Below are positions 45,410 through 58,788 of a stretch of DNA of 64,000 nt, piece by piece; the first letter of the stretch is position 1, and every line of letters starts with the position of its first letter. This DNA is from Sulfolobales archaeon (lineage in GTDB: Archaea; Thermoproteota; Thermoprotei_A; Sulfolobales; NBVN01). The translations under genes and the position numbers were made by a program. Under the pieces are notes generated by a model. It searched no databases. It saw only the letters and a program-made list of their open reading frames with translations, and was not told where the DNA came from. Location: assembly GCA_038832865.1 (NCBI GenBank), contig JAWBJE010000004.1:14217-78216 (forward strand), read 5' to 3'.

Positions 45410-45700
45410 CTACTCTTTACGTAGCACTATCCTTAAGTACTGGTAGTTCTCGAGGTATTCTACACCGATTAAGCGGGAAACTTCTGCACTTAGTTCAGTC
45501 ATTAATAGCTCACCCCGCTCGATCAACTTCTCGGCTACATCCGCCGGCATCTCACTAAGGCTGTAGATACCTCTAGATACACACTTAGAAACTGCCGCAT
45601 ACACGTGCCTGTATGTCGAGAGCTCGGGGACATCGACAACGCAGATGTATACCTCAGCCTTCAGACGCAACCACCTCAACTCTCTTTGACTTCTGCTCAA
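45410..45700 (-). CDS. hypothetical protein, last gene of the hydrogenase cluster
   Basis: 96 aa. The 5' end overlaps the HycG-like gene by 47 nt. No motif recognised. Confidence 0.4.
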   Translation of the reverse strand: MSRSQRELRWLRLKAEVYICVVDVPELSTYRHVYAAVSKCVSRGIYSLSEMPADVAEKLIERGELLMTELSAEVSRLIGVEYLENYQYLRIVLRKE

Positions 45701-46163
45701 CTAACCCTAGAAGTAGGAGCATCCCATATATTATAGCCTCGGGTCTAACTGGACAGCCTGGGACGTACACGACTCTATCTACTTCTACACCATTCTCTCT
45801 AAGTATTTCTTCAAGCTTCTTGAAGCCTCCTAGTGTTGAGTACGTGTCCCACCAGATACCTCCCCCAACTCCGCACGACCCTAGAACTAGGATAAGCCTG
45901 GGTCTCGGCATGGCCTTAATGGTCTTTACGACCTTCGGCAGGGACTCCCTCGTTACGGGACCTGTGAACAGTATTACGTCGGCATGCCTAGGGGAACCCA
46001 CGAGCTTTATCCCGAACCTCTCTACGTCAAAGTATGGAGTTAGCGCATCTAGAACTTCTATATCGCACGCATTGCAGGAGCCGCTGTTGAGGTGGTATGC
46101 CCACACACTCCTCTTGATGGCCCTCAAAGCCCTAGCTATGTTAACACTACTCACTTCCAGCAC
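45654..46163 (-). CDS. [NiFe]-hydrogenase small subunit, NuoB/HycG/MbhJ-like
   Basis: Proximal-cluster Cys contexts: SGSCNACDIE, LGSCGVGGG, VPGCPVRPEA. Confidence 0.88.
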   Translation of the reverse strand: MLEVSSVNIARALRAIKRSVWAYHLNSGSCNACDIEVLDALTPYFDVERFGIKLVGSPRHADVILFTGPVTRESLPKVVKTIKAMPRPRLILVLGSCGVGGGIWWDTYSTLGGFKKLEEILRENGVEVDRVVYVPGCPVRPEAIIYGMLLLLGLVEQKSKRVEVVASEG

Positions 46164-46662
46164 CCAGCCTGAGCATAGCGGCTCTTGCGAACTTCTCCTT
46201 TCTGCACTTTGGACAGACCAGGTAGTACTCTTCAGCTATCGGTGACGACTTAACTACAGTTCTGAGCTCGGCCTCAGTCCATATGGGCGCCCCGCATATC
46301 GAGCATCGAGCCAGTCTATGGATAACTCTAGACTTAAGGTCCTCTAGTGAGGTTGCTGAAAGCTCGAACTCCTTAGTTACCTCTATAGCCTTAGCTGGAC
46401 ATACTTCAGCACACATACCGCAGAATATGCACCTACCCACGAAGTACTCGAGTGTAGCTTCCTTTCCAGCTGGCTTGAGAGTTAGAGCGTTGGGTGGGCA
46501 GACCTTCACACACGCTCCACAACCCCAGCACTTCGATGGATCGATCTTCACAGCACCTCTAAACTCGGGAGTAAGTAGAGGAGGTTCATACGGGTACCTC
46601 CTAGTGACCCGACCGGTTCTTAAGGCAATCTCTAGGATCCTAGCTACAGACATTCTAAACAC
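46147..46662 (-). CDS. 2x[4Fe-4S] subunit, NuoI/HycF/MbhN-like, with extra C-terminal CxxC...CxxC tail
   Basis: CWGCGACVKVCP and CIFCGMCAEVCP, plus CSICG(x26)CPKC at the C-terminus. Confidence 0.85.
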   Translation of the reverse strand: MFRMSVARILEIALRTGRVTRRYPYEPPLLTPEFRGAVKIDPSKCWGCGACVKVCPPNALTLKPAGKEATLEYFVGRCIFCGMCAEVCPAKAIEVTKEFELSATSLEDLKSRVIHRLARCSICGAPIWTEAELRTVVKSSPIAEEYYLVCPKCRKEKFARAAMLRLGAGSE

Positions 46663-48277
46663 CCTGCTTTAGCCTAATGAAGCTCTTCCTACCAGACCTT
46701 ACGTCCAACACCGTAACCCTATCGGTACAGGAGAAGCAGGGGTCTATACTGGCTATCGTGAGCGGCGCGTCAGCTAGGGGAGCGCCTCTCAGCATAGCTC
46801 TTAGCGCCGGAATGTTCTGGTACGTCGGTGCCCGAACTCTCCACCTGTACGGCCTACCGACTCCAGTAATTATGAAGTGCACGTCTTCTCCTCTCGGTGC
46901 CTCGATAGCTGCTACAGCCCTTCTACCCGGAGGTATGTCGTACTCCTCGACTACTACGCTACCCCCCGGAAGCATGTCTATGAGTTGCTTGATTATCTCG
47001 ATGCTCTCAAACACCTCATCAACTCTAACAAGCAGTCTAGCTAGATTGTCTCCCTCAGTATACAGCGGAACCTTGAACGATACCCTCTTGTAGGCTAGAT
47101 ACGGATAGTCTTTTCTTACGTCTCTGTAGAGACCCGAAGCTCTAGCGACCGGGCCCACAACACTGAGGGCTCTAGCTTCGGCCTTGGTCAGAACTCCGGT
47201 ACCAGAAGCCCTCGACTTGATCTGCGGTACGGCCAGAATAGCCTTAACTAGCTCGGTAAACTCCTTTCTTAAGTCAGTAATTGTTTTGAGGGCCTTATCG
47301 ATCTTTTCCGTGTTTACGTCTTTCCTTACGCCTCCGATTAAGTTGATCCCGTAAGTCTTTCTAGAACCAGTTAAGTACTCGGCCAGCACCATAACCCGCT
47401 CGCGGATCCTCCAAGCGTGCATAAACCCCGCATCGTAACCCAGCAAGTGGGCTGCAACTCCGAGCCAGAGCAGGTGACTGTGGAGCCTCTCGACCTCGAG
47501 TACTATCGACCTAATGAACTCGGCCCTCTCAGGGATGACTATGCCAGCGGCCTTCTCGACTGCCATTACGTAGCAGGAAGAGTGGACGAACCCGCATATA
47601 CCGCATATCCTCTCGGCTAAAAACGGAATTTGCTTGTAGGTGAATCTCTGCGACTCTGCTAACTTCTCGATACCTCTATGGACGTGGAACCCTCTATACG
47701 CTACATCTACTACTCTCTCACCTTCTACGTATAGCTCGAAGTACTCTGGTTCGTGAAGTGCCGGATGATAAGGTCCAACTGGAATACCGGCTTCCTCCGG
47801 TAGCTCCCCCCGTAAGACTCTGGGAGGTTTTTCATCGTACTTAAACTCCTTTCTCAGCGGGTAAACACCCTCCGGCCAGTCCTCGGGTAGGACCAACCTC
47901 TTAGTTAACCTGCCTCTAAAGTCTATCCCCAGCAGGTCGCGGACTTCGAGCTCACACCAGTCTGCTGCTGGAACATCTGGAACTACGGAGATTGTCCAAG
48001 GGTCGTCCTGGGGAACTAAAACCCTTAAGACAGCGTCTACTCCATGATCGTCTAAACCGAAAATGTAATAAATAGCGAACAGCCCACTGAGTTCTCTCTC
48101 ATCAACACCGGCGCAAGTCTTAAGGTAGGCCCCTAAGCTGTAGAGAGCTCTAGCTGCGGCTCTAACGTTCTCCCTGGTAACTCTGAAGTATACTTCAGAG
48201 TTTCTCACCTCTTCAACGAAAGCCCCAATCCCTTCTAGAGCTTTAACAATAATTGAGAGTGGCGAATCTCTCTTCAT
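46655..48277 (-). CDS. group-4 [NiFe]-hydrogenase large subunit fused to a NuoC-like domain (HycE / MbhK+L-like)
   Basis: N-terminal 30-kDa (NuoC) domain, then a NuoD-like domain with both Ni-Fe ligand pairs retained: ERICGICGFVHSSC and DPCFSCTDR, followed by a short C-terminal extension. Confidence 0.92.
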   Translation of the reverse strand: MKRDSPLSIIVKALEGIGAFVEEVRNSEVYFRVTRENVRAAARALYSLGAYLKTCAGVDERELSGLFAIYYIFGLDDHGVDAVLRVLVPQDDPWTISVVPDVPAADWCELEVRDLLGIDFRGRLTKRLVLPEDWPEGVYPLRKEFKYDEKPPRVLRGELPEEAGIPVGPYHPALHEPEYFELYVEGERVVDVAYRGFHVHRGIEKLAESQRFTYKQIPFLAERICGICGFVHSSCYVMAVEKAAGIVIPERAEFIRSIVLEVERLHSHLLWLGVAAHLLGYDAGFMHAWRIRERVMVLAEYLTGSRKTYGINLIGGVRKDVNTEKIDKALKTITDLRKEFTELVKAILAVPQIKSRASGTGVLTKAEARALSVVGPVARASGLYRDVRKDYPYLAYKRVSFKVPLYTEGDNLARLLVRVDEVFESIEIIKQLIDMLPGGSVVVEEYDIPPGRRAVAAIEAPRGEDVHFIITGVGRPYRWRVRAPTYQNIPALRAMLRGAPLADAPLTIASIDPCFSCTDRVTVLDVRSGRKSFIRLKQGV

Positions 48278-49128
48278 AGCCCCAACCCGAAAGAGAGAAC
48301 TAGAGTTGACGACAAGAAGAAGAGTAAAACATATAGGAACCTTACCGCTAGGTCCACCCTACTTCTTCCAAGTATAGTGCTAACTACTGTATGAACCACC
48401 CATACAACTGGGGTTGCGGCAACTACGGTTGCGAGGGAGCTCAAACCACTCAGTCCAGCAAAAGAGATGAGGGCTAGAGCTGTTAGAGTAGCAGAAACGA
48501 GCTTCTTTAAAACAGAAGAAATTGTTGCCAACCCTAGTAATGGTCCAGCGAGCTCTATGTTTACACCGGAAGCCAGCTCCGGCTCGGCTTCAGCTATGTC
48601 GTACGGTACTCTACCGCTAATGACGTATGAAGATACTGCTAACACAGCTGTTGCGATACTCCTTGAGGCTAGAGAGCCGGCACCTGAGGCGAGAAAAAGA
48701 AAGGATACGGCTAGAAATGGTTCTGCCGAGAGCATCAGGGAGAACTCTCTAAAGCCACCTACTACAGAAAATACGTTGTTTTGAGATACGGCTCTAACGA
48801 TCGCTAGAGTTGCTACAACACTAGTTAGCACTATGAAAGCCACAGACTCTGGGAGAGTTGCGTGACCTAGACCGTAGCTCGATATGTGGTACAAGATAGC
48901 CGAGGACGCTATTAGCGCCAACAATTCTAGCGCTGTCACTAGAGTGCACCAAGCACCACCTACCGGCACAACGATCTCCTTCGTGAAGAGCTTGAGTATG
49001 TCGTACCACGTCTGGAGGATCGGTGGACCGATCCTCGTGTGAATAGCTGCTCTAATCTTTCTCTCCAGTCCGTCATATACTGGTGCCAGCGCGAGAGACA
49101 AGACTGCGGCAGCTACGCTATACAGCAC
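48274..49128 (-). CDS. membrane subunit NuoH/HycD/MbhM-like
   Basis: DGLERKIRAAIHTRIGPP...YDILKLFTKE N-terminal pattern. About 8 TM segments. Confidence 0.85.
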   Translation of the reverse strand: MLYSVAAAVLSLALAPVYDGLERKIRAAIHTRIGPPILQTWYDILKLFTKEIVVPVGGAWCTLVTALELLALIASSAILYHISSYGLGHATLPESVAFIVLTSVVATLAIVRAVSQNNVFSVVGGFREFSLMLSAEPFLAVSFLFLASGAGSLASRSIATAVLAVSSYVISGRVPYDIAEAEPELASGVNIELAGPLLGLATISSVLKKLVSATLTALALISFAGLSGLSSLATVVAATPVVWVVHTVVSTILGRSRVDLAVRFLYVLLFFLSSTLVLSFGLGL

Positions 49129-49441
49129 CCCTCAACACCACAACCACTAGCATTGCTATAGTGGTTAGGACTCCAGCTAGTAGAGACGAAAAAGCTACTG
49201 ACGTCTCGAGAGACCGCCTAAACCACTCGAGGTACCTGATTGCGATAGTTGCGTACTTCCTAAAGTCGAACTCTACGATAGCGAAGTACTGCGGAAGGTT
49301 TATTATCGACCTCATGACTTTGGCGAAGACGTAGCTGGCTCTAGACCCTTTTTGCTCTACTAGTGGACCACTTAGCTCAGTAACTCGATCGAAGAAGACG
49401 GAGCTATCTACAAACATGAGCTTCTTAATGTACTCTTCCAT
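49118..49441 (-). CDS. hypothetical small subunit with C-terminal TM helix
   Basis: 107 aa, wedged between the HycC-like and HycD-like genes and overlapping the latter by 11 nt. No motif recognised. Confidence 0.45.
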   Translation of the reverse strand: MEEYIKKLMFVDSSVFFDRVTELSGPLVEQKGSRASYVFAKVMRSIINLPQYFAIVEFDFRKYATIAIRYLEWFRRSLETSVAFSSLLAGVLTTIAMLVVVVLRGAV

Positions 49442-49470
49442 TCTCCTTACTACGCTCGACCTAACGTGGC

Positions 49471-50979
49471 TCAGGGTCTAGCACCCCCTAGCCAAACTTC
49501 GTCTTTTCTACCACGCTTTAGGACTATGTAGGTAATCCATCCAGCGATGCCGAATAGAGCACTAAATAGAGTGAGTAGAGCAAGTACTTGCGGAACTAGG
49601 TCGACTATTGGACCGGGTGCTAGGCTCCCGACTACGTAGTACGTAAGGACTAGTGACGACACTGATAGAGATAATACGTAAGGAACTAGCTTCATACCGG
49701 ACGGGTCTAGCTCCTCGTATCTGTAAGTCGGGTTGCCCATGTGTGCTAGAAGGTACCTAACGCTATACCCTATAGATAGCGCTACTTCAAAAGCTACGAC
49801 CAACGTGATAGCTAGGTAGACCCAGGATACCGGTATGTGGCTAGCTAGCGTCATGAAGACTACGAGCTTGTTTAGAAAGCCAAGTGTCGGAGGAACACCA
49901 ACTAGTGAGAGAACAGACATTAACGCAGAAAGAGTCTCGCCGGGGGCTACTCTAGATACGTACCCGAGTTTCTCGAGCGTTCTAGTGTGGGTCAGTAGCT
50001 CTATCACGCCGGAGTCCATAAACAGGGATGCTTTGTAGATAGCGTGAGCAGCGGCATATATGGTGACTGCCGTCAGAAAGTCTGAGGACCCGGACATCAC
50101 GTATAGCCCTATGAGTAGAGTCATAGTGCTCGTATGGGATACGGTGCTGTAAGCCAAGATCCTCTTGATATCCGACTGGACGAGGGCTTGAAGGCCTCCG
50201 TAGATAGCCGTTAAGGACCCGAACACGAGGCATGTCACTGCGGCAACGCCTACATCAACCGCGTGCGACAATGCCAACCTGACTAAACCGTACACCCCCA
50301 TCTTAACCATGAGGCCCGAGAGGACTGCCGACCCGGGCGATGGGGCCATAGAGTGAGCATCCGGGAGCCAGAAGTGAAGTGGGGCTACAGCCGCCTTCGC
50401 CATGAAGCCCAGCATGGCGATAACCGTTAGAACGGGCGACCTCAGGTCGATCGCTATCGATGTGAGTGGGGTGCTCATGGATGGGCCAAGGCCGGCAAGA
50501 GCTAGCAGTAGGAGCAGGGAGAGGTCCGCCGGAACCATAGACACGATAAGGTATCTTAGTCCGGCCGACCAAGCCCTAGGATTTGTTCCTACTATAGCGT
50601 CGTAAACTACAACGAAGAAACCTAACATTTCGGCTATCAACCATAGGGCGACCAGCTCTATTAGGTACTTAGACGTGAACACTAATGCTGTAGAGAGAGT
50701 AAAGAAGTCTACTAGCAGCTGCAGAGCTCCAGTACCGTACTTCCTGTACGAGTACCCGAACGTGTACAAAGTGACTAGAGAAGCGGTAACGACCGAAACC
50801 ACCAAGAGTACCGATGGAAACGCCTCCAGGTACCAGTCGTGGAGCAGTAGCAAGAGAACTAGAAAACCGAGGACTCTCAGTGTGGCACCTACTCTACTTG
50901 CCCTAGTGAAACCTAGGTTGCCGAGGAAGAGTAGCGACATCGAGGCAGCATAGATGGAGTACCTCGAGAGGTCTATCAC
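49471..50979 (-). CDS. antiporter-like membrane subunit, NuoL/HycC-like
   Basis: Proton_antipo_M pattern HFWLPDAHSMAPSPGSAVLSGLMVKMGVYG. 502 aa, polytopic. Confidence 0.85.
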   Translation of the reverse strand: MIDLSRYSIYAASMSLLFLGNLGFTRASRVGATLRVLGFLVLLLLLHDWYLEAFPSVLLVVSVVTASLVTLYTFGYSYRKYGTGALQLLVDFFTLSTALVFTSKYLIELVALWLIAEMLGFFVVVYDAIVGTNPRAWSAGLRYLIVSMVPADLSLLLLLALAGLGPSMSTPLTSIAIDLRSPVLTVIAMLGFMAKAAVAPLHFWLPDAHSMAPSPGSAVLSGLMVKMGVYGLVRLALSHAVDVGVAAVTCLVFGSLTAIYGGLQALVQSDIKRILAYSTVSHTSTMTLLIGLYVMSGSSDFLTAVTIYAAAHAIYKASLFMDSGVIELLTHTRTLEKLGYVSRVAPGETLSALMSVLSLVGVPPTLGFLNKLVVFMTLASHIPVSWVYLAITLVVAFEVALSIGYSVRYLLAHMGNPTYRYEELDPSGMKLVPYVLSLSVSSLVLTYYVVGSLAPGPIVDLVPQVLALLTLFSALFGIAGWITYIVLKRGRKDEVWLGGARP

Positions 50980-51470
50980 TAGGTCTCACCTAGCTGAACT
51001 ATGCGCGCTAGTGCCCTCTTCTTTATCTCGTCTCCTACGGCCTTGGGTCCGCCCATTAGTATAGCCCTACTGGGGCACATCGCCACGCAGGCCGGAGTCA
51101 ATCCGTCGCTCCTTAGCGCTCTACACAGATCGCACTTTATCGACGTTTTCGTAACCTCGCTGTAGTCAGGTATACCGAACGGACAAGCGTACAGGCAGGC
51201 CATGCAGCCGATGCACCTAGACAGCTCAACGTATACTGCTCCCTGCGAGTCCCTCCTCATAGCACCGGTCGGGCAGGCCTCAACGCAAGGAGCTTTACTA
51301 CAGTGGAAGCACGATATAGGTCTTTTGACTCCTCCCCAAAGCTCGTAGAGCTTTATGAACGGACCTAGCTCGTGCACAAACTCGCATACAGCTTCGCAGG
51401 TTCCGCAACCCATGCACTTCGAGTAGTCTATTACCCTTAGTAGAACTCCGGAGTCGGGCACTCTCATCAC
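50979..51470 (-). CDS. 4x[4Fe-4S] electron-transfer subunit, HycB/DmsB-type
   Basis: 16 Cys in four motifs: CMGCGTCEAVC, CFHCSKAPCVEACP, CIGCMACLYACP and CDLC...CVAMCP. Confidence 0.85.
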   Translation of the reverse strand: MMRVPDSGVLLRVIDYSKCMGCGTCEAVCEFVHELGPFIKLYELWGGVKRPISCFHCSKAPCVEACPTGAMRRDSQGAVYVELSRCIGCMACLYACPFGIPDYSEVTKTSIKCDLCRALRSDGLTPACVAMCPSRAILMGGPKAVGDEIKKRALARIVQLGET

Positions 51471-52537
51471 CTCGCTACGAGGGTCTTAACAGACAAAAAC
51501 TTGTCCACCTCCTTTGCCGCGAGTAATCCCAGCCTAACGGCCTGACCTATCTTCGAAGGACCTGTTACCACATCTCCAGCAGCAAATATGTTAGTACCCG
51601 GCACTCGATATGTCCTATCCACAATCATCCTGCCGTCCTTACCTACGTACTTACCTATACCACCACACTCGGAAGCCACCGGAGGCGTGGGGATCTCACC
51701 TATAGCTGCTATAACCAGGTCGGCTGCTACCTCGAACTCGCTACCAGGGATGGGGACAGGCCTCGGCCTGCCCGTCTCGTCCGGTTCCCCAAGCTTCATC
51801 CTCTGGAATACTACTCCCCTAGCGATACCGTTCTCGACTACGATACTCTTTGGTGCGGCGAGCTCTATCCAGTTCACACCTAGTCTCATTAGCCTCCTTA
51901 TTTCATATTCTCCGGCTGGTGCCTCCTTTATAGTCCTTCGGTAGACTAGGTACACCTCTTGAGCCCCCTTCATTAAGCTCTCTTCAGCAGCATCTATAGC
52001 ACTGAGACCCCCGCCTACAATCACGACCCTCCTCAGGCTACCCAAGTGACTGGCCCTGAGGCCTAGCTCCTCGAGATGTAAGTCGAGTAGGAACTCTAGT
52101 GCCGACATAACGTTCTTAGCGTCGTCCCCAGGGATGCCGAGCCGCCTAGAGCGCCACGTCCCGGTAGCAACGAGTACTGCGTCGTAGCCTTCAGCGAGCT
52201 TGAGCATGTCTAGCGAGTTTGTGGCCAGCTCGTCACCCTCGTCCCTCCTCTCACCACAAAATACTTTAGTAGATAGAGTAAACTTTACGCCGAACTTGCC
52301 TTTGAGTTCCTCTACCCCCTCCATGATGCTGTCTAGCGGGATCCTGTACTTGGGGATGGCGAAAGTCATCATACCGCCAGGCATCGGTAGCTTTTCGTAG
52401 ACGTCGACCTCGTAACCCCTACACACGAGAAAACCTGCCGCAGATAGCCCTGCAGGTCCGGCACCGATGATCGCTACCTTATGGTGAGAGGCGCCGGGCC
52501 TCTGCCGGCAAAGGAATGCGAACCTCATTTTCTCCAC
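51467..52537 (-). CDS. GltD/SudA-like FAD- and NAD(P)H-binding oxidoreductase lacking the N-terminal Fe-S domain
   Basis: VAIIGAGPAGLSAAGFL...YEKLPMPGG (FAD), VVIVGGGLSAIDAAEE (NAD(P)H), AAGDVVTGP. Only 356 aa. Overlaps the HycB-like gene by 4 nt. Confidence 0.8.
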   Translation of the reverse strand: MEKMRFAFLCRQRPGASHHKVAIIGAGPAGLSAAGFLVCRGYEVDVYEKLPMPGGMMTFAIPKYRIPLDSIMEGVEELKGKFGVKFTLSTKVFCGERRDEGDELATNSLDMLKLAEGYDAVLVATGTWRSRRLGIPGDDAKNVMSALEFLLDLHLEELGLRASHLGSLRRVVIVGGGLSAIDAAEESLMKGAQEVYLVYRRTIKEAPAGEYEIRRLMRLGVNWIELAAPKSIVVENGIARGVVFQRMKLGEPDETGRPRPVPIPGSEFEVAADLVIAAIGEIPTPPVASECGGIGKYVGKDGRMIVDRTYRVPGTNIFAAGDVVTGPSKIGQAVRLGLLAAKEVDKFLSVKTLVAR

Positions 52538-52554
52538 TCCTCAGTTGTTCTAAC

Positions 52555-52566
52555 CTTTTTAAATAC
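52555..52566 (-). promoter_or_regulatory. candidate internal promoter (minus-strand GTATTTAAAAAGG) ahead of the gltD-like gene
   Basis: An A/T-rich TATA-like box in the 68-bp gap after the MrpD-like gene. Its centre is about 22 nt from the GTG at 52537 and about 32 nt from the ATG at 52528. Confidence 0.35.
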
Positions 52567-52605
52567 GCCATGCGACTGCTTATATTGTATAAACGAGGCA
52601 CAGCC

Positions 52606-54153
52606 TCATGCGCCCATGACAGCTCTAACGTAGCTGACGTAGTCCATTGCTGCTCTACCGGCATCCGCTATGATGCTACTCACTTCAGGTACAGCTATAA
52701 CCGCAACTCCGAGTATGACTAGCGCTAGAGTCGTTATAGCTATGACCACCTTAGGTACCCAGCAGCTACGCAGTCTTGGGTCCTCCCTAGTCTTTGGTGC
52801 CGACTTAGCGAGGTAGTTCATGAGCCTAACGTAGCCTACCCCCGATATACCCGTTGATACTACGAGCACTACCGCACTCGCCAGGTAGCCTACCTCTAGG
52901 ACGGCCATGAATATGAACAACTTGCTCCAGAAGCCTACGAGTAGTGGTACTATGCCGAAGAGGTTAAGGAGTCCCACCACGAAGGCTGTAGACGCCAGCT
53001 TACTCCTTCTTAAAGCACCGAGGCTGTCTAGGGACCTACCCGCAGCTACTATCGCTATGCCGGCCGCATAAAAGAGAAGGGCTTCACTGAGGGAGTTGGA
53101 GATGAGCTGGAGTACCGCTGCCGAAACGCCTCTCTCAGTACCGGTAGTAGTAGCCATGAACGCCAGACCCATGTGACTGATCGTGCTATAGGCGATGAAT
53201 TTCTTGATGTCTGTTTGGACGAGCAATAGTAAGGCCCCGACGAGAGCCGAGAGAGCCCCCAACCCGTGGAGTAGCAACAGGATGTCGCACCTTAAGGCCT
53301 CTATGACGCTTCCCGCACCGAATAGCGTGTAGAGAAACCTCATGACTCCGTAGGCACCTATTAAGTCGATAACGGCTACGAAGAGGGCCGAGACGGGTGT
53401 CGGAGCCTCCGGGTTAGCGTCCGGAAGCCAGAAGTGGTTGGGGAATATGGCGGCCTTAAAGGTAAAGGTCCAGGCAGATAAAGCTATCGCTACAGCTGTA
53501 GAAAAAGCTATGTTGCCGAAGACACCGCCACTATAAGCAACTACCGCTTCCGGATGCCTCGACTTCATGGCTATGTCTGCCATATTGAGGGTTCCGTAGG
53601 AGCCGTACACTACGAACGCTGCCAATAGGTACAGCGAAGTAGCTACCATACCAACTATCGCATACCTGATTGACGCCTCTATAGCCCTGGGGTTGTCTCT
53701 GTAGAAGGAGACCAGGACGTAGGCTGAAAGAGACAGAACTTCAAGCATTACGAAGAAGTTAAATACGTCGCCAGTATATAGACAGCCTACCGACCCCGCA
53801 CCTAGTGTCAGCATGAACGTGTAATATAAGTATTCGTTGCGCGACCTAACCATCCATGTGCTGTATAGAGTGGACATAGTGAGTATGAACATAGATAAGA
53901 GAGCTAGAGTGCTGCTCAGGGAGTCTATAGTGTAAACTATGCCGAGCGGCGGCCTGAAGCCCCCGAACCAGTAGGTAACCACTCTGCCTCCGCTGGTCTC
54001 TAGAGCCACGGCTAGCGCCATGAATAAACCGACTATACACACGGCTATTGAATAGGCACGGAAGAACTTGGGGTTCTTGATTACTAGAGAGAGTCCTGGC
54101 AGGAGGAACGCTGCGCCCACTAGGAATAAGGGGAGTAGTCCAGCCAACAACAC
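52606..54153 (-). CDS. antiporter-like subunit MrpD/MnhD/NuoN (MbhH-like)
   Basis: HFWLPDANPEAPTPVSALFVAVIDLIGAYG. 515 aa, polytopic. Confidence 0.88.
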   Translation of the reverse strand: MLLAGLLPLFLVGAAFLLPGLSLVIKNPKFFRAYSIAVCIVGLFMALAVALETSGGRVVTYWFGGFRPPLGIVYTIDSLSSTLALLSMFILTMSTLYSTWMVRSRNEYLYYTFMLTLGAGSVGCLYTGDVFNFFVMLEVLSLSAYVLVSFYRDNPRAIEASIRYAIVGMVATSLYLLAAFVVYGSYGTLNMADIAMKSRHPEAVVAYSGGVFGNIAFSTAVAIALSAWTFTFKAAIFPNHFWLPDANPEAPTPVSALFVAVIDLIGAYGVMRFLYTLFGAGSVIEALRCDILLLLHGLGALSALVGALLLLVQTDIKKFIAYSTISHMGLAFMATTTGTERGVSAAVLQLISNSLSEALLFYAAGIAIVAAGRSLDSLGALRRSKLASTAFVVGLLNLFGIVPLLVGFWSKLFIFMAVLEVGYLASAVVLVVSTGISGVGYVRLMNYLAKSAPKTREDPRLRSCWVPKVVIAITTLALVILGVAVIAVPEVSSIIADAGRAAMDYVSYVRAVMGA

Positions 54154-54159
54154 TCTTCA

Positions 54160-54675
54160 TCACCCGAAGATCTTCTGTGCGTACTTCTCGAACTCTGCCG
54201 ATATCTCCTCCCTGGCTTTAGCTGGCTCGTAGGTGGTTGCTGTGAGCCAGTGCACGAAGAAAACCTTCCTCTTAGTATCTACTTGAACTACTACAGTGCC
54301 TGGGGTATTCGTTATGGAGCCCGCTATTAGAGTCATACCATAGCTCGTACCAACGTAGTATGGAACCTCGACGATCGCCGGTGAGATCTTAATCTTCCTA
54401 CTCAATACTATCCTAGCTATTCTGACGTGTGCCTTTACTTCTGCTACCAGCATGTAGTAGAAGTAGTAGGCTACGAGGTAGAACAGCCGAATTGCGTCGG
54501 ATACCTTAAGGTCCCGAGAGATCAGCACTGGCTTAACGACGACCGACGCTACTGCGGAAGCTATAACTCCTAAAACTAAGCTGAAGGCAGAGGTAGCTCC
54601 AGTAAAGACCATATAAAACGAGTATATCATAGAGAACACAGCTAGGTAGCTGAAGACCCTACCCAACGGAACCAC
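54160..54675 (-). CDS. MrpE/MnhE-like subunit (MbhA-like)
   Basis: Two N-terminal TM helices and the MnhE-type ITNTPGTVVV motif. Confidence 0.75.
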   Translation of the reverse strand: MVPLGRVFSYLAVFSMIYSFYMVFTGATSAFSLVLGVIASAVASVVVKPVLISRDLKVSDAIRLFYLVAYYFYYMLVAEVKAHVRIARIVLSRKIKISPAIVEVPYYVGTSYGMTLIAGSITNTPGTVVVQVDTKRKVFFVHWLTATTYEPAKAREEISAEFEKYAQKIFG

Positions 54676-55081
54676 CCTCCATAATTCTTACGTGAGTCGT
54701 TTTGTAGTGTCTGTAGTACATAACTATCAGACCAACTAAAAACATGTAGACAGCTAAACCGATGACTATAGCAGTTAGAACTAGAGCCTGCGGTACGGGG
54801 TCGACTGCGGTCTCAGCAAATGTGGCTAGCTCACTGAGGTCTTCCGGCACAGAGCTGAGTACAGCTATTGACGGATAGGTGTCGCTCACGCGTCTAAACC
54901 CGATCGCGATAGCGAAGCTGTTTAGGGTATCTGAGAATATGGTTAAGCATATGAACTTCTTCACTAGAGAGGGCCTCGTGAAGACTCCGTATAGTGATAT
55001 CCCAATGTTAACTACTAACGAGAGAACTACTACAGTATAGAGAGTTATCACTAAGTCACTCATACCACTCACTCTCCCCAA
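54659..55081 (-). CDS. MrpC/MnhC / NuoK-like subunit (MbhG-like)
   Basis: Three TM helices. ALVLTAIVIGLAV is typical of MnhC/NuoK. Confidence 0.75.
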   Translation of the reverse strand: MGRVSGMSDLVITLYTVVVLSLVVNIGISLYGVFTRPSLVKKFICLTIFSDTLNSFAIAIGFRRVSDTYPSIAVLSSVPEDLSELATFAETAVDPVPQALVLTAIVIGLAVYMFLVGLIVMYYRHYKTTHVRIMEGGSVG

Positions 55082-55868
55082 GAGCTTCCTCTACTTCACT
55101 CTCCCTTAGGGAGAGCACTAGGAACGCTAGCGAAAGTCCGGCAGCAACAGCTAGTGCTTCAAATAGGTTAAAGAAGAGTAAAGTACCACCAGTTGGGCGA
55201 TCGAGTAGCCAGGAAGGCATCGATAGAGGTGAACCCTCTCTAGCCATGTTTTGGAATATGTAGGCGTGAGTCCCTAGTATGATGCCTAGTACTACTAGAG
55301 CTACTGAAGTAGAAAGTACACCAACTAACCCGATAGACCTGAGCATGAGGAGTTTACTACTCGTAAGACCGCTCCCTATGACGAAGTCTAGGGAGAAGAC
55401 CACAGACATTAGTACTAGCAGTACAGCTATGAAGGACCCTCCCTGAAACCCACCTCCCGGTGTGAGATGACCGTGGATGGCTATAGAGATTCCAGCTATG
55501 AGTATGAGGGGTGTGAGAACTCTCGTGGAGGTCCTGACTATCTCGGACAAACCCCTCCCACCTAAGCCTAGCTTTTCTCGGTATCCTCTAAACACGAGAG
55601 CGACACCTACGATTGACACGAATAGCACGGATGTCTCGAAGAACGTATCGAGACCTCTATAGTCCCAGACTATTGCTGTAACGGCCTCTAAAGATAGAGC
55701 ACTCTTAGTGATGTTCCAAGGATTGTACGTGTTGATTAGGTAGGATACCGCTAAGTCCCTAAGCCTACTTGGAGCGATGGGACCTAATCCCCCGGCCCCT
55801 ATGGTGTAAGCTAAAAGAGCGATCATTAAGGCTATAGAGACAGCTATTACTGCTTCCCGCAGGTTCAA
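55056..55868 (-). CDS. MrpB/MnhB-like subunit (MbhE/F-like)
   Basis: MnhB signature GHLTPGGGFQGG. Polytopic. Confidence 0.8.
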   Translation of the reverse strand: MNLREAVIAVSIALMIALLAYTIGAGGLGPIAPSRLRDLAVSYLINTYNPWNITKSALSLEAVTAIVWDYRGLDTFFETSVLFVSIVGVALVFRGYREKLGLGGRGLSEIVRTSTRVLTPLILIAGISIAIHGHLTPGGGFQGGSFIAVLLVLMSVVFSLDFVIGSGLTSSKLLMLRSIGLVGVLSTSVALVVLGIILGTHAYIFQNMAREGSPLSMPSWLLDRPTGGTLLFFNLFEALAVAAGLSLAFLVLSLRESEVEEALGESEWYE

Positions 55869-56116
55869 CTCTCATACCTCTCGGTCTTCTTTATTAAGAG
55901 GACTGTGACTGCTGGCAGTATTCCCACGGAGACAGGGATATACACTAACACTATGTCTGGAGCCATTAGGACGTAGTAGATTAGTGCGTACGCAGTACTC
56001 TGGACAGCTGAAAAAACTACTGCGGCAAGCATGTCTCTAGATCTAACAGCTAGGTATGTCGCTATCACCGATAAGAGAGCGGCTACCGCAGCAATCGATA
56101 TCGGTACAACTTCCAC
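55865..56116 (-). CDS. small MbhD-like membrane subunit (MnhB N-terminal-domain-like)
   Basis: 83 aa, three TM helices, LMAPDIVLVY-type motif. Position is as in mbh operons. Confidence 0.6.
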   Translation of the reverse strand: MEVVPISIAAVAALLSVIATYLAVRSRDMLAAVVFSAVQSTAYALIYYVLMAPDIVLVYIPVSVGILPAVTVLLIKKTERYES

Positions 56117-56490
56117 TACTCACCACCCCTATCTTTGAGGGCGTCGTGTAGTATGGGCTCCCTCGGTGCCTCACCGGAGATGTAGGCTGCTCTCGCGATA
56201 GCGTGCGACCCAGCTTGAGCTAAGACCATCAGTAGTATGCTACTCGCAAAGGCTGCTCCCGCAAGGAAGAACCTGGGAGGACCCAGGTAGTCCGCACCGA
56301 GAGCTACGAGAGCGGACCCTATCATAGGGACTACAGCACCTCCTATAGCACCAGCAGTAGCTGCGTGAAGCCTCGTGTAAAAGTTTGGCAACCTAAGTAG
56401 ACCTATAGCACCCACGAAGTCGTAAAAGACTCCGATCGAGATGAGGGTTAACCCTGCAACCACTAAGACCAGGTCTATCACTTCACTCAC
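56116..56490 (-). CDS. MrpG/MnhG-like subunit (MbhC-like)
   Basis: LLRLPNFYTRLHAATAG is the MnhG signature region. Confidence 0.8.
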   Translation of the reverse strand: MSEVIDLVLVVAGLTLISIGVFYDFVGAIGLLRLPNFYTRLHAATAGAIGGAVVPMIGSALVALGADYLGPPRFFLAGAAFASSILLMVLAQAGSHAIARAAYISGEAPREPILHDALKDRGGE

Positions 56491-56767
56491 CCATTTCTTT
56501 AGCTTCTAGGTACTTCGCTACGTAGATATCGAATGCGTAAACCCATAGAGCTAGGGCTAGACCCGACACGACCATGAGAGGGGATTTAAGGAGGATGGAT
56601 AGAACGACCATAAACGCCGCCAGGTCGTACCCTAGGGAGTCTACAGCCAGCACTCTATCCGGGATAGTAGGTCCTTTAATAACGCGAACCACGTAGAGCA
56701 AGAACGACACAACGTATATCGGGATGAGTACTGTCAGTACTGAAGTGACCAAGGCCTCTACGACCAT
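56483..56767 (-). CDS. MrpF/MnhF-like subunit (MbhB-like)
   Basis: IKGPTIPDRVLAVDSLG is the MnhF signature region. This is the first gene of the cluster. Confidence 0.8.
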   Translation of the reverse strand: MVVEALVTSVLTVLIPIYVVSFLLYVVRVIKGPTIPDRVLAVDSLGYDLAAFMVVLSILLKSPLMVVSGLALALWVYAFDIYVAKYLEAKEMGE

Positions 56768-56802
56768 ACGTGGACTACCGCAATCAAGCTACAGCCTAAA
56801 GC

Positions 56803-56813
56803 ATATAAGCTTT
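56803..56813 (-). promoter_or_regulatory. BRE/TATA promoter element (minus-strand AAAGCTTATAT) for the mrp-hydrogenase cluster
   Basis: 36-46 nt upstream of the MrpF-like ATG (56767). Embedded in the inverted repeat CTAAAGC-ATATAA-GCTTTAG (56796-56815). Confidence 0.5.
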
Positions 56814-57108
56814 AGAGCTCCAGCAACGAGGTAGTTACGAACGGTCGTTGAGCAGGTGGTTAGACCGCTGAATACGGCCGACATCACCCTAAAGTCGTTC
56901 GATTTACAGAGCACAACTTCGTACTCGTGCTATGACGCGAGTCATGCTAAGTAAACTACGTATTTATGCTTTACACTTACGCTTTTAGGGGAACAAATCG
57001 GCTAGAACCGTTGAAGTCTATACCTTCGGGTACGTAGAAAAGGATGCTCTAGACTCGGTACTAGAGTCCATACCGAAGGTTCTGGGCTTCAGCTCTCGCT
57101 ACGCTGGG

Positions 57109-57540: not shown

Positions 57541-58039
57541 GCAATTCCTCTAACTCCAGGGTAGAGCCGCAGCGTGGACAGCTCCCGGGAGTAACCCCAA
57601 TGTGACCACAGCTTCTGCACCTATACGAGTACCTACTCGGTCTTCTCTTCTCTGCGTACTTTATCCCGCGGACTTGGATCCCGAGGGATAGAGCCACGTC
57701 TTGAACAAGCCTGTCGTCTGTGTAAAGGATGGCGTTACCGCACTTCTTCTTGACGTACTCTGCCAGCGCTAAAACTTCGATATCCGTGCGAGAAAGCTCA
57801 TCGAGCAGGCCTAGCTCCCTAGCCTTAGACTTTACAGACGCCACGTGTTCGCCCGGTGGAGAGAGCACTACTAGCTTACCCGACGCTTGAGCGAACTCTA
57901 GCCGCATCCTGCTAACACTATCTAAAACCTCTCTTAAGACTCCCTCGGTTGTATAAAAGAGTCCGTAGCTCAACTCGACCCCAGCAAACATCGCAGCCGA
58001 GTCTAGTACTATAGTGCTTCTCCCGCAGTCTACAGGCAT
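57533..58039 (-). CDS. nob1: Nob1-like endoribonuclease (PIN domain + C-terminal zinc ribbon)
   Basis: PIN acidic residues (VLDSAAM..., YTDDRLVQDVA) and CRSCGH...CPRCGS. Confidence 0.78.
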   Translation of the reverse strand: MPVDCGRSTIVLDSAAMFAGVELSYGLFYTTEGVLREVLDSVSRMRLEFAQASGKLVVLSPPGEHVASVKSKARELGLLDELSRTDIEVLALAEYVKKKCGNAILYTDDRLVQDVALSLGIQVRGIKYAEKRRPSRYSYRCRSCGHIGVTPGSCPRCGSTLELEELPR

Positions 58040-58788
58040 CTCTCGAATACCTTCGAGAAGTAATCTTCGGTGAAGAACCTGATGACTTTAGCGGGCTTAG
58101 GTGCCTTCGACACCAGTATCGTGTCGCCAGGCTCGAGTCTCGAGATCAGTACCCCGTCTACGAATAGCTCGACTGGGTGTGAATCGCCTTCAACCTCAAC
58201 AGACACCTTAACGTGGTCAGGTAGAACTACCGGTCTAGAGCATAATGAGATTGGTGCTAAGGGTGTGATCACTATGGCCCTCATGAGGGGATCCACGATC
58301 GGCCCCCCGGCGGCTAAGCTATAGGCAGTCGAGCCTACGGGTGTAGACGTTATCACCCCATCACCTACCACCGTGAGTACTCTCTCTGGTACACCTCCCT
58401 GGGAGTACTTCATGACCCTAAGCCTACAAACCTTACCCCTAGAATCCGAAGATGTAGTTACCACTGCGTCATTAAGTGCGTAGGGTATGTTGTCTACTCT
58501 CTCTGTCTGCACTGCCAACCTCATGTACTCGTGTAGCGAGTACACACCGCTGAGCAGCCTGTCGATCGCTAGTGCGAAATCGTGGGGTGGAACGTCGGCA
58601 AGAAACCCCCTCTTCCCGTGCCTGATAGTTAAAATGGGTATCTCTAGGTCTCCGAGTAGGTGCATAGTCCTTAAGATAGTGCCGTCTCCGCCGACGACAG
58701 CGATTACGTCTACTTCATCCACCCCGAGACTGAAGTACCTTAGCCAGTCGATGAGGCCCCTGGTACGGGAGTCCATGTACACCTTCAA
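58030..58788 (-). CDS. nadK: NAD kinase
   Basis: VVGGDGTILR, ALNDAVV, GVITSTPVGSTAYSLAAGGPIV. The frame is open upstream to 58944 and encodes a family-like N-terminus with no canonical start. Confidence 0.88.
   Translation of the reverse strand: MKVYMDSRTRGLIDWLRYFSLGVDEVDVIAVVGGDGTILRTMHLLGDLEIPILTIRHGKRGFLADVPPHDFALAIDRLLSGVYSLHEYMRLAVQTERVDNIPYALNDAVVTTSSDSRGKVCRLRVMKYSQGGVPERVLTVVGDGVITSTPVGSTAYSLAAGGPIVDPLMRAIVITPLAPISLCSRPVVLPDHVKVSVEVEGDSHPVELFVDGVLISRLEPGDTILVSKAPKPAKVIRFFTEDYFSKVFERCL

Follow-up and report, generated by a model that had tools for sequence, protein, structure and literature searches.

The 64-kb window analysed here (Sulfolobales archaeon, contig JAWBJE010000004.1) holds a cluster of 16 co-directional minus-strand genes, read from 56767 to 45410, in which a [NiFe] hydrogenase of the formate hydrogenlyase (FHL) type is joined by seven membrane subunits of the Mrp antiporter type and by a GltD-like flavoprotein. 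The evidence tips, by a small measure, towards these genes coding for one membrane complex: a group-4b-type (FHL-like, Mrp-linked) hydrogenase on which an NADPH-binding flavoprotein carrying flavin adenine dinucleotide (FAD), seated on a HycB-type polyferredoxin, would serve as substrate module. Its most likely function would be that of a reversible NADPH:H+ oxidoreductase which translocates H+/Na+ as it turns over. No part is missing or broken, and the cofactor motifs are complete; what we infer is that the parts make up a single complex, that it is specific for NADPH, which way the reaction runs and that ion movement is coupled to it.

Gene content was taken from the open reading frame (ORF) listing and from Pfam. 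Both agree with an earlier note on this DNA, which had described a co-directional minus-strand cluster of 16 genes; the cluster end given there, 56815, lies 48 nt past the first usable MrpF start codon (56767). In the order in which they are read, the features are:

56483-56767, minus strand: MrpF-like membrane subunit, 94 aa, first gene (PF04066 MrpF_PhaF, E=1.3e-12)
56116-56490, minus strand: MrpG-like membrane subunit, 124 aa (PF03334 PhaG_MnhG_YufB, E=7e-17)
55865-56116, minus strand: MbhD-like membrane subunit, 83 aa (PF13244 MbhD, E=2e-13)
55056-55868, minus strand: MnhB-like membrane subunit, 270 aa (PF04039 MnhB, E=4e-19)
54659-55081, minus strand: MrpC/NuoK-like subunit, 140 aa (PF00420 Oxidored_q2, E=6e-19)
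54160-54675, minus strand: MrpE-like subunit, 171 aa (PF01899 MNHE, E=2e-34)
52606-54153, minus strand: MrpD-like antiporter subunit, 515 aa (PF00361, E=3e-51; NCBIfam Na+/H+ antiporter subunit D models)
52538-52605, minus strand: largest gap in the cluster, 68 nt, with a possible internal promoter (direct reading of the sequence)
51467-52537, minus strand: GltD/NfnB/SudA-like Pyr_redox_2 flavoprotein, 356 aa as listed (PF07992)
50979-51470, minus strand: HycB/CooF-type polyferredoxin, 163 aa (PF13247 Fer4_11)
49471-50979, minus strand: HycC-like antiporter-type membrane subunit, short form, 502 aa (PF00361; NCBIfam hydrogenase 4 subunit B / hydrogenase membrane subunit)
49118-49441, minus strand: small membrane-anchored ORF, 107 aa, without Pfam or NCBIfam match
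48274-49128, minus strand: HycD/NuoH-like membrane subunit, 284 aa (PF00146, E=5e-34)
46655-48277, minus strand: [NiFe] large subunit, 540 aa, HycE-type fused NuoC-NuoD (PF00329, PF00346, PF00374 NiFeSe_Hases)
46147-46662, minus strand: HycF/NuoI-like subunit with two [4Fe-4S] clusters, 171 aa (NCBIfam NF009053, formate hydrogenlyase Fe-S subunit, E=2e-37)
45654-46163, minus strand: HycG/NuoB-like small subunit, 169 aa (PF01058)
45410-45700, minus strand: small soluble ORF, 96 aa as listed, no family

Adjoining genes mostly overlap, by 1-47 nt, and gaps occur only between MrpE and MrpD (6 nt), between MrpD and the flavoprotein (68 nt) and between HycC and the 107-aa ORF (29 nt, 49442-49470). 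A TATA-like CTTATATG is found ~40 nt upstream of MrpF. The 68-nt gap contains the boxes TTTATA and TTTAAAAA, the latter ~30 nt upstream of the flavoprotein ATG, as well as GAGGAG ~10 nt upstream; it is a possible internal archaeal promoter with a candidate ribosome-binding site.

Hydrogenase core and Mrp module

The large subunit retains both CxxC pairs of the Ni-Fe site, RICGICGFVH (Cys225/228) and DPCFSCTDR (Cys514/517), and the columns of both pairs are invariant across the large subunits of 20 relatives. Compared with solved structures, it scores 461 bits with E. coli HycE (7z0s_E, over residues 45-535), 248 bits with MbhL and 183 bits with MbsL, and its NuoC-like and NuoD-like domains (PF00329, PF00346) are joined in one protein. 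Judged by sequence, the large subunit is of the HycE type (FHL-like) and not a derivative of Mbh, Mbs or Nuo, so that the description as a true hydrogenase holds. The partner set of a group 4 hydrogenase is complete, with NuoB-like, NuoH-, NuoI- and NuoL/M/N-like subunits (PF00346, PF00374, PF01058, PF00146, PF00361; PDB matches).

The cluster is collinear with hycB-C-D-E-F-G of E. coli FHL Hyd-3 (7Z0S), an order already recognised in the earlier note: E. coli HycB, C, D, E, F and G match the window in the same sequence with 29, 31, 28, 46, 35 and 46% identity (tblastn). After DPCFSCTDR, a C-terminal extension of 20 aa aligns with that of HycE and would be a maturation extension of the kind that HycI-type proteases remove; no hycI homologue is found in the window by tblastn. 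The differences are that the window has no FdhH partner and no hycA, hycH, hycI or hyp gene nearby, while the Mrp module and two small ORFs are added. The chain of iron-sulfur clusters is fully laid out, with 16 Cys in four [4Fe-4S] motifs of the HycB-like polyferredoxin (Cys19-29, 54-66, 86-96, 113-132), eight Cys in two [4Fe-4S] motifs of HycF and four Cys for the proximal cluster in HycG (Cys30/33/97/137). HycF carries in addition a C-terminal CxxC...CxxC motif in residues 120-153 (Cys120/123/150/153) with a weak match to Cys_rich_KTR, possibly a zinc ribbon or another site that binds metal.

The large subunits most similar to that of the window are found in metagenome-assembled genomes labelled 'Sulfolobales archaeon' (96% and 82% identity). 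These are followed at 60-70% by Zestosphaera, Ignisphaera, Desulfurococcus, Thermosphaera, Staphylothermus and Thermogladius, with a Zestosphaera sp. at 70%. By these matches, the DNA comes from a hyperthermophilic crenarchaeote of the Desulfurococcaceae type. The antiporter-linked cluster of Zestosphaera has been termed group 4b (PMC11467010). Of the traits of this group, the adjoining Mrp/Mnh module is present in the window and likewise in relatives; an encoded partner of the formate dehydrogenase (Fdh) or carbon monoxide dehydrogenase (CODH) kind is absent, and the flavoprotein is in its position. The subgroup placement follows published statements and relative scores; the relevant genera, searched by genus, are absent from the HydDB supplements.

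The cluster opens with the seven subunits of the Mrp type (F, G, MbhD, B, C, E and D), and here Pfam confirms the earlier assignment. The N-terminus of the MnhB-like subunit is weakly MbhE-like, with PF20501 MbhE below its cut-off, and the MrpC/NuoK-like subunit has 134 aa in relatives (gene calls, L081-L083). With Pfam and NCBIfam, no NuoL-like subunit of MrpA length was found in the Mrp set, so that it falls short of a complete MrpA-G set. Among relatives, three of four gene orders have the Mrp genes directly beside those of the hydrogenase. Because MrpA is missing and the Mrp genes are attached in this way, a free-standing antiporter is unlikely on sequence grounds. The order F-G-(MbhD)-B-C-E-D is that of the FHL-linked set of P. 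abyssi (PMC2678158).

Three characterised systems help to place the architecture. T. onnurineus Fdh2-Mfh2-Mnh2 and Codh-Mch-Mnh3 (group 4b) have the same fused HycE-type large subunit, HycB/CooF wiring and Mrp order F-G-(MbhD)-B-C-E-D, with FdhA or CooS in the flavoprotein position; in the Thermococcus loci L019 and L034 the large subunit is 49-51% identical to that of the window. Unlike these complexes, the window has the flavoprotein as substrate module in place of FdhA/CooS, and a short HycC followed by the 107-aa ORF where they have a single long HycC. P. furiosus Mbh (6CFW) also carries an Mrp-type module (MbhD, MnhB, NuoK-like, MrpD-like) on a group 4 hydrogenase, but Mbh takes ferredoxin directly, has NuoC and NuoD as separate proteins and contains neither a HycB-type nor a flavoprotein subunit.

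The flavoprotein-polyferredoxin pair and its neighbourhoods

The flavoprotein matches NCBIfam NF009409 (PRK12770, 'putative glutamate synthase subunit beta', short form) over its full length, with 455 bits at a cut-off of 343, its residues 1-351 covering profile positions 1-353 of 360. Its start is probably the ATG at 52528, which gives 353 aa, the length in relatives. Residues 18-350 align to 155-472 of NfnI-L/SudA (5jca_L), 190-498 of StnC (8oh5_C) and 124-446 of GltD, with E=1e-40 to 1e-56 over the FAD and NADPH domains (5jca_L, E=2e-51), and 4ylf_B and 2vdc_G are aligned by the same residues. GxGxAG, GGGxSAxDAAE, YRR and APAG (YRR..APAG) are invariant among 17 members of the flavoprotein family, and we take YRR after the second Rossmann strand to be an NADPH-type signature. 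Its invariant R65 is the counterpart of NfnB R201/StnC R239, near flavin N5.

The two-Rossmann FAD/NADPH fold, GxGxAG, YRR and the Arg of NfnB R201 are thus shared with NfnI-L/SudA (5jca_L), GltD (2vdc_G, 6s6s_G) and StnC (8oh5_C). Unlike these, the window flavoprotein has neither the N-terminal domain of ~120-150 residues with two [4Fe-4S] clusters nor an NfnA-type partner, and only four scattered Cys are present. Smar_1055 of S. marinus is likewise '120 amino acids shorter' (PMC2678158). Having no Fe-S domain of its own, the flavoprotein therefore would need an external cluster partner, and it is presumably the HycB-type polyferredoxin, separate here or fused in paralogues, that supplies the clusters. 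The example of StnC shows that a GltD-type NADPH domain can pass single electrons to a Fe-S chain without bifurcation (PMC10482914).

The two genes are always adjacent or fused and move as a unit through four gene orders. In about one third of the flavoprotein homologues among the matches listed, the polyferredoxin is joined to the C-terminus, which gives one protein of 527-550 aa, and E. coli AegA and YgfT also unite both domain types (NCBIfam). Because the pair always moves together and occurs fused, there is strong evidence from sequence comparison that flavoprotein and polyferredoxin work together physically.

One genome per species was scanned with a large-subunit alignment, which resulted in 80 loci whose ORFs were annotated against the 16 window proteins; six further contigs that were looked up agree with the linkage between pair and hydrogenase (loci and contigs are given as L numbers). 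The earlier note would have abandoned its reading if the flavoprotein gene were not kept beside the hyc-like genes in relatives. The outcome favours that reading: the pair adjoins the hydrogenase genes in nearly every locus with sufficient flank and a large-subunit identity of 57% or more, and four gene orders occur:

Order A (Thermosphaera/Desulfurococcus type; L007, L008, L013, L086, L088, L089, probably L001, which has a single HycC): pair, HycC (two copies), small ORF, HycD, E, F, G, small ORF, no Mrp genes
Order B (Staphylothermus type; L005, L006): as order A, then Mrp
Order C (Ignisphaera/Zestosphaera type; L010-L012): Mrp, HycC to HycG, small ORF, pair
Order D (window, L081 with 96% and L082 and L083 with 82% identity): Mrp, pair, HycC to HycG, small ORF

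The window lineage has its own gene order, a detail new here. The large subunits that are linked to a flavoprotein fall into a single clade of a neighbour-joining (NJ) tree. The sister clades carry other genes upstream of the same HycC-D-E-F-G(-Mrp) core, namely CooF-CooS-CooC in L021, L064 and L022, and a molybdopterin FdhA beside a HycB-type gene in L034 (Thermococcus). The flavoprotein thus occupies the slot that is normally held by formate dehydrogenase or CODH, just as had been proposed from the window sequence. Queries for FdhA, CooS, CooC and AOR from related loci have no tblastn match in the 64 kb.

There are a few exceptions to the linkage of pair and hydrogenase (L002/L003, L009, L014). 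L002 (3538-6183) and L003 (9484-12117) contain an orphan HycE-like large subunit, 66-69% identical to that of the window, together with HycF; there is no HycG, HycD or HycC, and a divergent CooF-CooS lies alongside. In L009, the pair is absent from a 13-kb contig and the Mrp genes are divergent. A 312-aa ORF after the large subunit of L009 (7577-8515) matches HycG, with no separate HycF match, and may be a HycF-HycG fusion or a frameshift. L014 has only the HycB-like gene of the pair, at the contig end.

The earlier note implied that this architecture was novel, which does not stand, since it was published in 2009 and 2010. Anderson et al. (2009) listed the SudA-like Smar_1055 beside Smar_1057-1071 of S. 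marinus (PMC2678158). In T. aggregans, D. kamchatkensis and S. marinus, Spring et al. (2010) recognised a 'dehydrogenase-linked MBX complex' in which a sudA homologue replaces fdhA; they proposed a link to an NADPH dehydrogenase with protons or sulfur as acceptor, and found antiporter genes in S. marinus only (PMC3035292). The D. amylolyticus cluster was noted to be without fdh (PMC7143981). Related ideas concern a gltD-linked mbx-like operon in Thermotoga (PMC4758237) and group 4b clusters of bacteria that include NADPH subunits of the SHI type (PMC13582414). To an architecture known from 2009-2010 onwards, the window contributes only a further lineage and order of genes.

The Desulfurococcaceae complex (Tagg_0050-0059, D. 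kamchatkensis, Smar_1055-1071, Desfe_1134-1141; all genome-based predictions) has the same set of components, with Mrp in S. marinus; the large subunits of those genera are 60-66% identical to that of the window, and a D. amylolyticus-type contig has the pair upstream of the hydrogenase genes. The order differs: in the window Mrp comes first and the pair lies between Mrp and HycC, whereas Mrp is last in S. marinus, the pair is last in Ignisphaera and T. aggregans has no Mrp. Moreover, the window has one HycC-like gene rather than two, and its flavoprotein is from a different paralogue lineage.

This last point became evident from distance (NJ) trees of flavoprotein and polyferredoxin with 100 bootstraps. 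As a further new detail, the window flavoprotein groups with forms linked to AOR-family genes (94% and 100%), while the window polyferredoxin groups with a hydrogenase-linked one (98%) and the AOR-linked polyferredoxins are a clade of their own (100%). This suggests that in the window lineage the flavoprotein has been exchanged between the hydrogenase and AOR kinds of module.

Paralogues of the pair adjoin AOR-family (AFOR_N/AFOR_C) genes in Korarchaeum (L085, 9001-12404) and Methanodesulfokora (L022, 13910-18570), and in Ignisphaera (L087, 7119-11653) as a fused protein of 550 aa; in Korarchaeia, radical SAM/SPASM and ThiS-like genes accompany the AOR-linked pair. By analogy with bacterial AorABC, the AOR-adjacent pairs suggest NAD(P)-linked tungsten oxidoreductases in archaea. 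In AorABC of Aromatoleum aromaticum (a tungsten enzyme, a subunit with four [4Fe-4S] clusters and an NAD+-reducing FAD subunit), a polyferredoxin likewise links the catalytic to the FAD subunit (PMC6365974, PMC12318220), but there the catalytic partner is a tungstoenzyme. AorABC is regarded as an analogue and not a demonstrated homologue, because AorC is not among the PDB matches of the flavoprotein at E<=1e-5.

Proposed electron route and alternative explanations

In the complex that we favour, NADPH would reduce the FAD, where two-electron transfer would be converted to one-electron transfer. From there electrons would travel first along the HycB-like protein with its four [4Fe-4S] clusters, then over two clusters in HycF and one in HycG, and would form H2 at the Ni-Fe site of the HycE-like subunit. 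The movement of H+ and Na+ would be tied to redox turnover where HycE, HycG and HycD meet, and its path would be made of HycD, the HycC-like antiporter subunit and all seven subunits of the Mrp type, by analogy with Mbh, the Thermococcus Fdh-Mfh-Mnh and Codh complexes and E. coli FHL. With low H2 pressure and a reduced NADP pool, the electrons of NADPH would leave as H2 and ions would be exported; with high H2 pressure, the reaction would be reversed or the ion gradient would be needed for H2 evolution.

A rough estimate for 85 C, which uses 25 C midpoint potentials, gives a free energy change from NADPH to H2 of ~ +18 kJ/mol under standard conditions and of -9 to -23 kJ/mol at 1e-4 atm H2, depending on the NADPH/NADP+ ratio. 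Being near equilibrium, the reaction could run in both directions and, at low H2, might allow energy to be conserved, and the thermodynamic argument on NAD(P)H and H2 in the earlier note appears reasonable.

Ferredoxin is the partner of Mbh, formate or CO that of the Thermococcus complexes, and the soluble hydrogenase SHI has no ion coupling. To our knowledge, no characterised respiratory hydrogenase joins the NADP(H) pool to H2 and a membrane ion gradient. If the coupling is as proposed, the complex would tie these three together directly and would account for the re-oxidation of NADPH in fermentative Desulfurococcaceae. It would also offer another clear example of modules exchanged on a common membrane chassis, FdhA, CooS and the flavoprotein being the alternatives, and would make the flavoprotein-polyferredoxin pair a portable unit that AOR-type enzymes use as well. 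Several carriers are in culture, e.g. S. marinus, T. aggregans, D. amylolyticus and Ignisphaera aggregans, so that the question of an NADPH-linked hydrogenase is directly testable.

A wider proposal is put forward tentatively and is open to considerable doubt: NADPH might be a third substrate of 'simple respiration' by Mrp-linked group 4b hydrogenases, besides formate and CO. At low H2, protons would be the terminal acceptor, and the export of Na+/H+ would provide ATP for fermentative Desulfurococcaceae. The flavoprotein would then be a freely exchangeable 'NADPH plug' that also serves AOR-type tungstoenzymes.

Several points weigh against the NADPH-linked complex. Its specificity for NADPH over NADH is read solely from a motif. 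As the flavoprotein groups with AOR-linked and not with hydrogenase-linked forms, its partner could in principle be a different one. The versions of T. aggregans and Desulfurococcus have no Mrp genes, and so ion coupling by Mrp is not universal. The TATA-like box in the 68-nt gap could divide the cluster into two transcripts, and the tblastn search of the 64 kb revealed no hyp or hycI maturation genes nearby. Finally, our literature search found no expression, purification or activity data for any member. Four other explanations have been considered, and all are weaker.

The one that survives best, although we consider it unlikely, is a ferredoxin-fed hydrogenase with a side branch to NADP+. 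Reduced ferredoxin would deliver electrons to the clusters of HycB/HycF and on to protons, or via the flavoprotein to NADP+, and the complex would be an ion-pumping ferredoxin:NADP+/H+ oxidoreductase that acts as a redox valve. Desulfurococcaceae do make reduced ferredoxin by 2-oxoacid and glyceraldehyde-3-phosphate oxidoreductases (PMC2678158, PMC7143981), for Smar_1057-1071 the authors of the S. marinus paper suggested that ferredoxin is oxidised and NAD(P)H formed (PMC2678158), and in four-cluster polyferredoxins entry points can be exposed to the solvent. However, in E. coli FHL and in Thermococcus Fdh/Codh-Mfh/Mch, HycB/CooF wires a dedicated dehydrogenase and not free ferredoxin. Separate clusters of the Mbh and Mbx types are available for ferredoxin in the same genomes (PMC3035292), and Pfam revealed no ferredoxin gene within the cluster.

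Homology of the flavoprotein to the bifurcating NfnI-L (5jca_L), with R65 kept as in NfnB R201/StnC R239, raises the question of an electron-confurcating or bifurcating hydrogenase, in which an NfnB-like flavin would use NADPH together with a second carrier, e.g. reduced ferredoxin, to drive the formation of H2, or would work the other way round. For bacteria, a branched group 4b architecture with a link to NADPH has been put forward (PMC13582414). We nevertheless hold this to be quite improbable. By Pfam, the cluster is without an NfnA-like subunit or a second exit path, and GltD, which has the same fold, is a plain NADPH dehydrogenase. R65 is uninformative on bifurcation because StnC keeps the equivalent Arg yet does not bifurcate (PMC10482914).

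There is a slim chance that the complex is linked to sulfur, its SudA-like flavoprotein reducing polysulfide or disulfide with electrons from H2 or NADPH in an ion-translocating H2:sulfur oxidoreductase. P. furiosus SudA shows polysulfide reductase activity in vitro, homologues are annotated as NADPH-dependent polysulfide reductase (PMC4711178), S. marinus requires sulfur and has no other known sulfur reductases (PMC2678158), and sulfur as acceptor was also allowed by Spring et al. (PMC3035292). Yet SudAB is now taken as NfnI in vivo, and T. aggregans keeps the cluster although it is inhibited by sulfur (PMC3035292). The flavoprotein has no CxxxxC or CoADR-type pair of redox Cys, only the scattered C10 and C39 being conserved, and the intact Ni-Fe site favours H2 chemistry.

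The cluster could also be made of two independent neighbours, an Mrp cation/proton antiporter that stands alone and, next to it, the flavoprotein-linked hydrogenase. This would fit the 68-nt gap with its TATA-like box between MrpD and the flavoprotein gene and the existence of Mrp-less versions of the hydrogenase, but it is highly improbable: the Mrp set contains no MrpA, shows the MbhD/MnhB layout known from modules attached to hydrogenases, abuts the hydrogenase in three orders across lineages and matches the P. abyssi FHL-linked set in its gene order (PMC2678158).

Flanking genes and the two small ORFs

In the 64 kb, no tblastn match was found for HypA-E, HycI, HycH and HycA of E. coli, and the earlier statement that the flanks contain no formate dehydrogenase, CODH or hyp gene can be extended by tblastn to the whole window. 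The flanking genes are of the housekeeping type (PIN_6, NAD kinase, archaemetzincin, TYW2-type methyltransferase, PadR, radical SAM protein, PanB, PAP2, deoxyhypusine synthase). The NAD kinase gene (58030-58788, minus strand) lies within ~2 kb of the cluster, and this is also the case in L081-L083. A divergent NAD kinase is found near the cluster in a D. amylolyticus-type contig (L088, 12975-14108), and none is near it in the other loci. We had considered this vicinity as backing for the NADP link but dropped it, as it is kept only in close relatives and in the one unrelated case of L088; it is probably due to chance.

The 107-aa ORF has an amphipathic N-terminal part and one C-terminal transmembrane helix. 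With a hidden Markov model (HMM) of positional homologues, its family was found between HycC and HycD in 11 loci, and only in the flavoprotein-linked clade; the members have 93-129 aa (L001, L004, L005, L007-L014, L086, L088, L089). In this clade HycC has ~505 aa, compared to 604-660 aa elsewhere. The long HycC has a C-terminal tail of 67-88 aa that is absent from the window HycC and that consists, in the layout of the 107-aa ORF, of an amphipathic segment and a terminal transmembrane helix. The 107-aa ORF may thus be a split-off substitute for the missing tail; lengths and layout fit this weak hypothesis, while the hhalign match between the two is weak (Prob 26%) and the family HMM has no match to the long HycC. 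In L002/L003, the orphan large subunit is preceded by a protein of 158 aa in which the 107-aa-ORF domain occurs twice.

The family of the 96-aa ORF was found by jackhmmer directly after HycG in 12 loci (L001, L005-L008, L010-L012, L014, L081-L083), and it has this position in all gene orders of the clade. The ORF has 86 aa in relatives and is 62% identical in L082/L083, where it had not been called as a gene (tblastn). A word search retrieved only two database homologues, there is no similarity to E. coli HycH, and Foldseek gave no PDB match at E<=0.001; AlphaFold2 reached a pLDDT (predicted local distance difference test) of 78 in only one of five models. Comparison of the loci indicates that both small ORFs are conserved across the clade, another detail that is new here.

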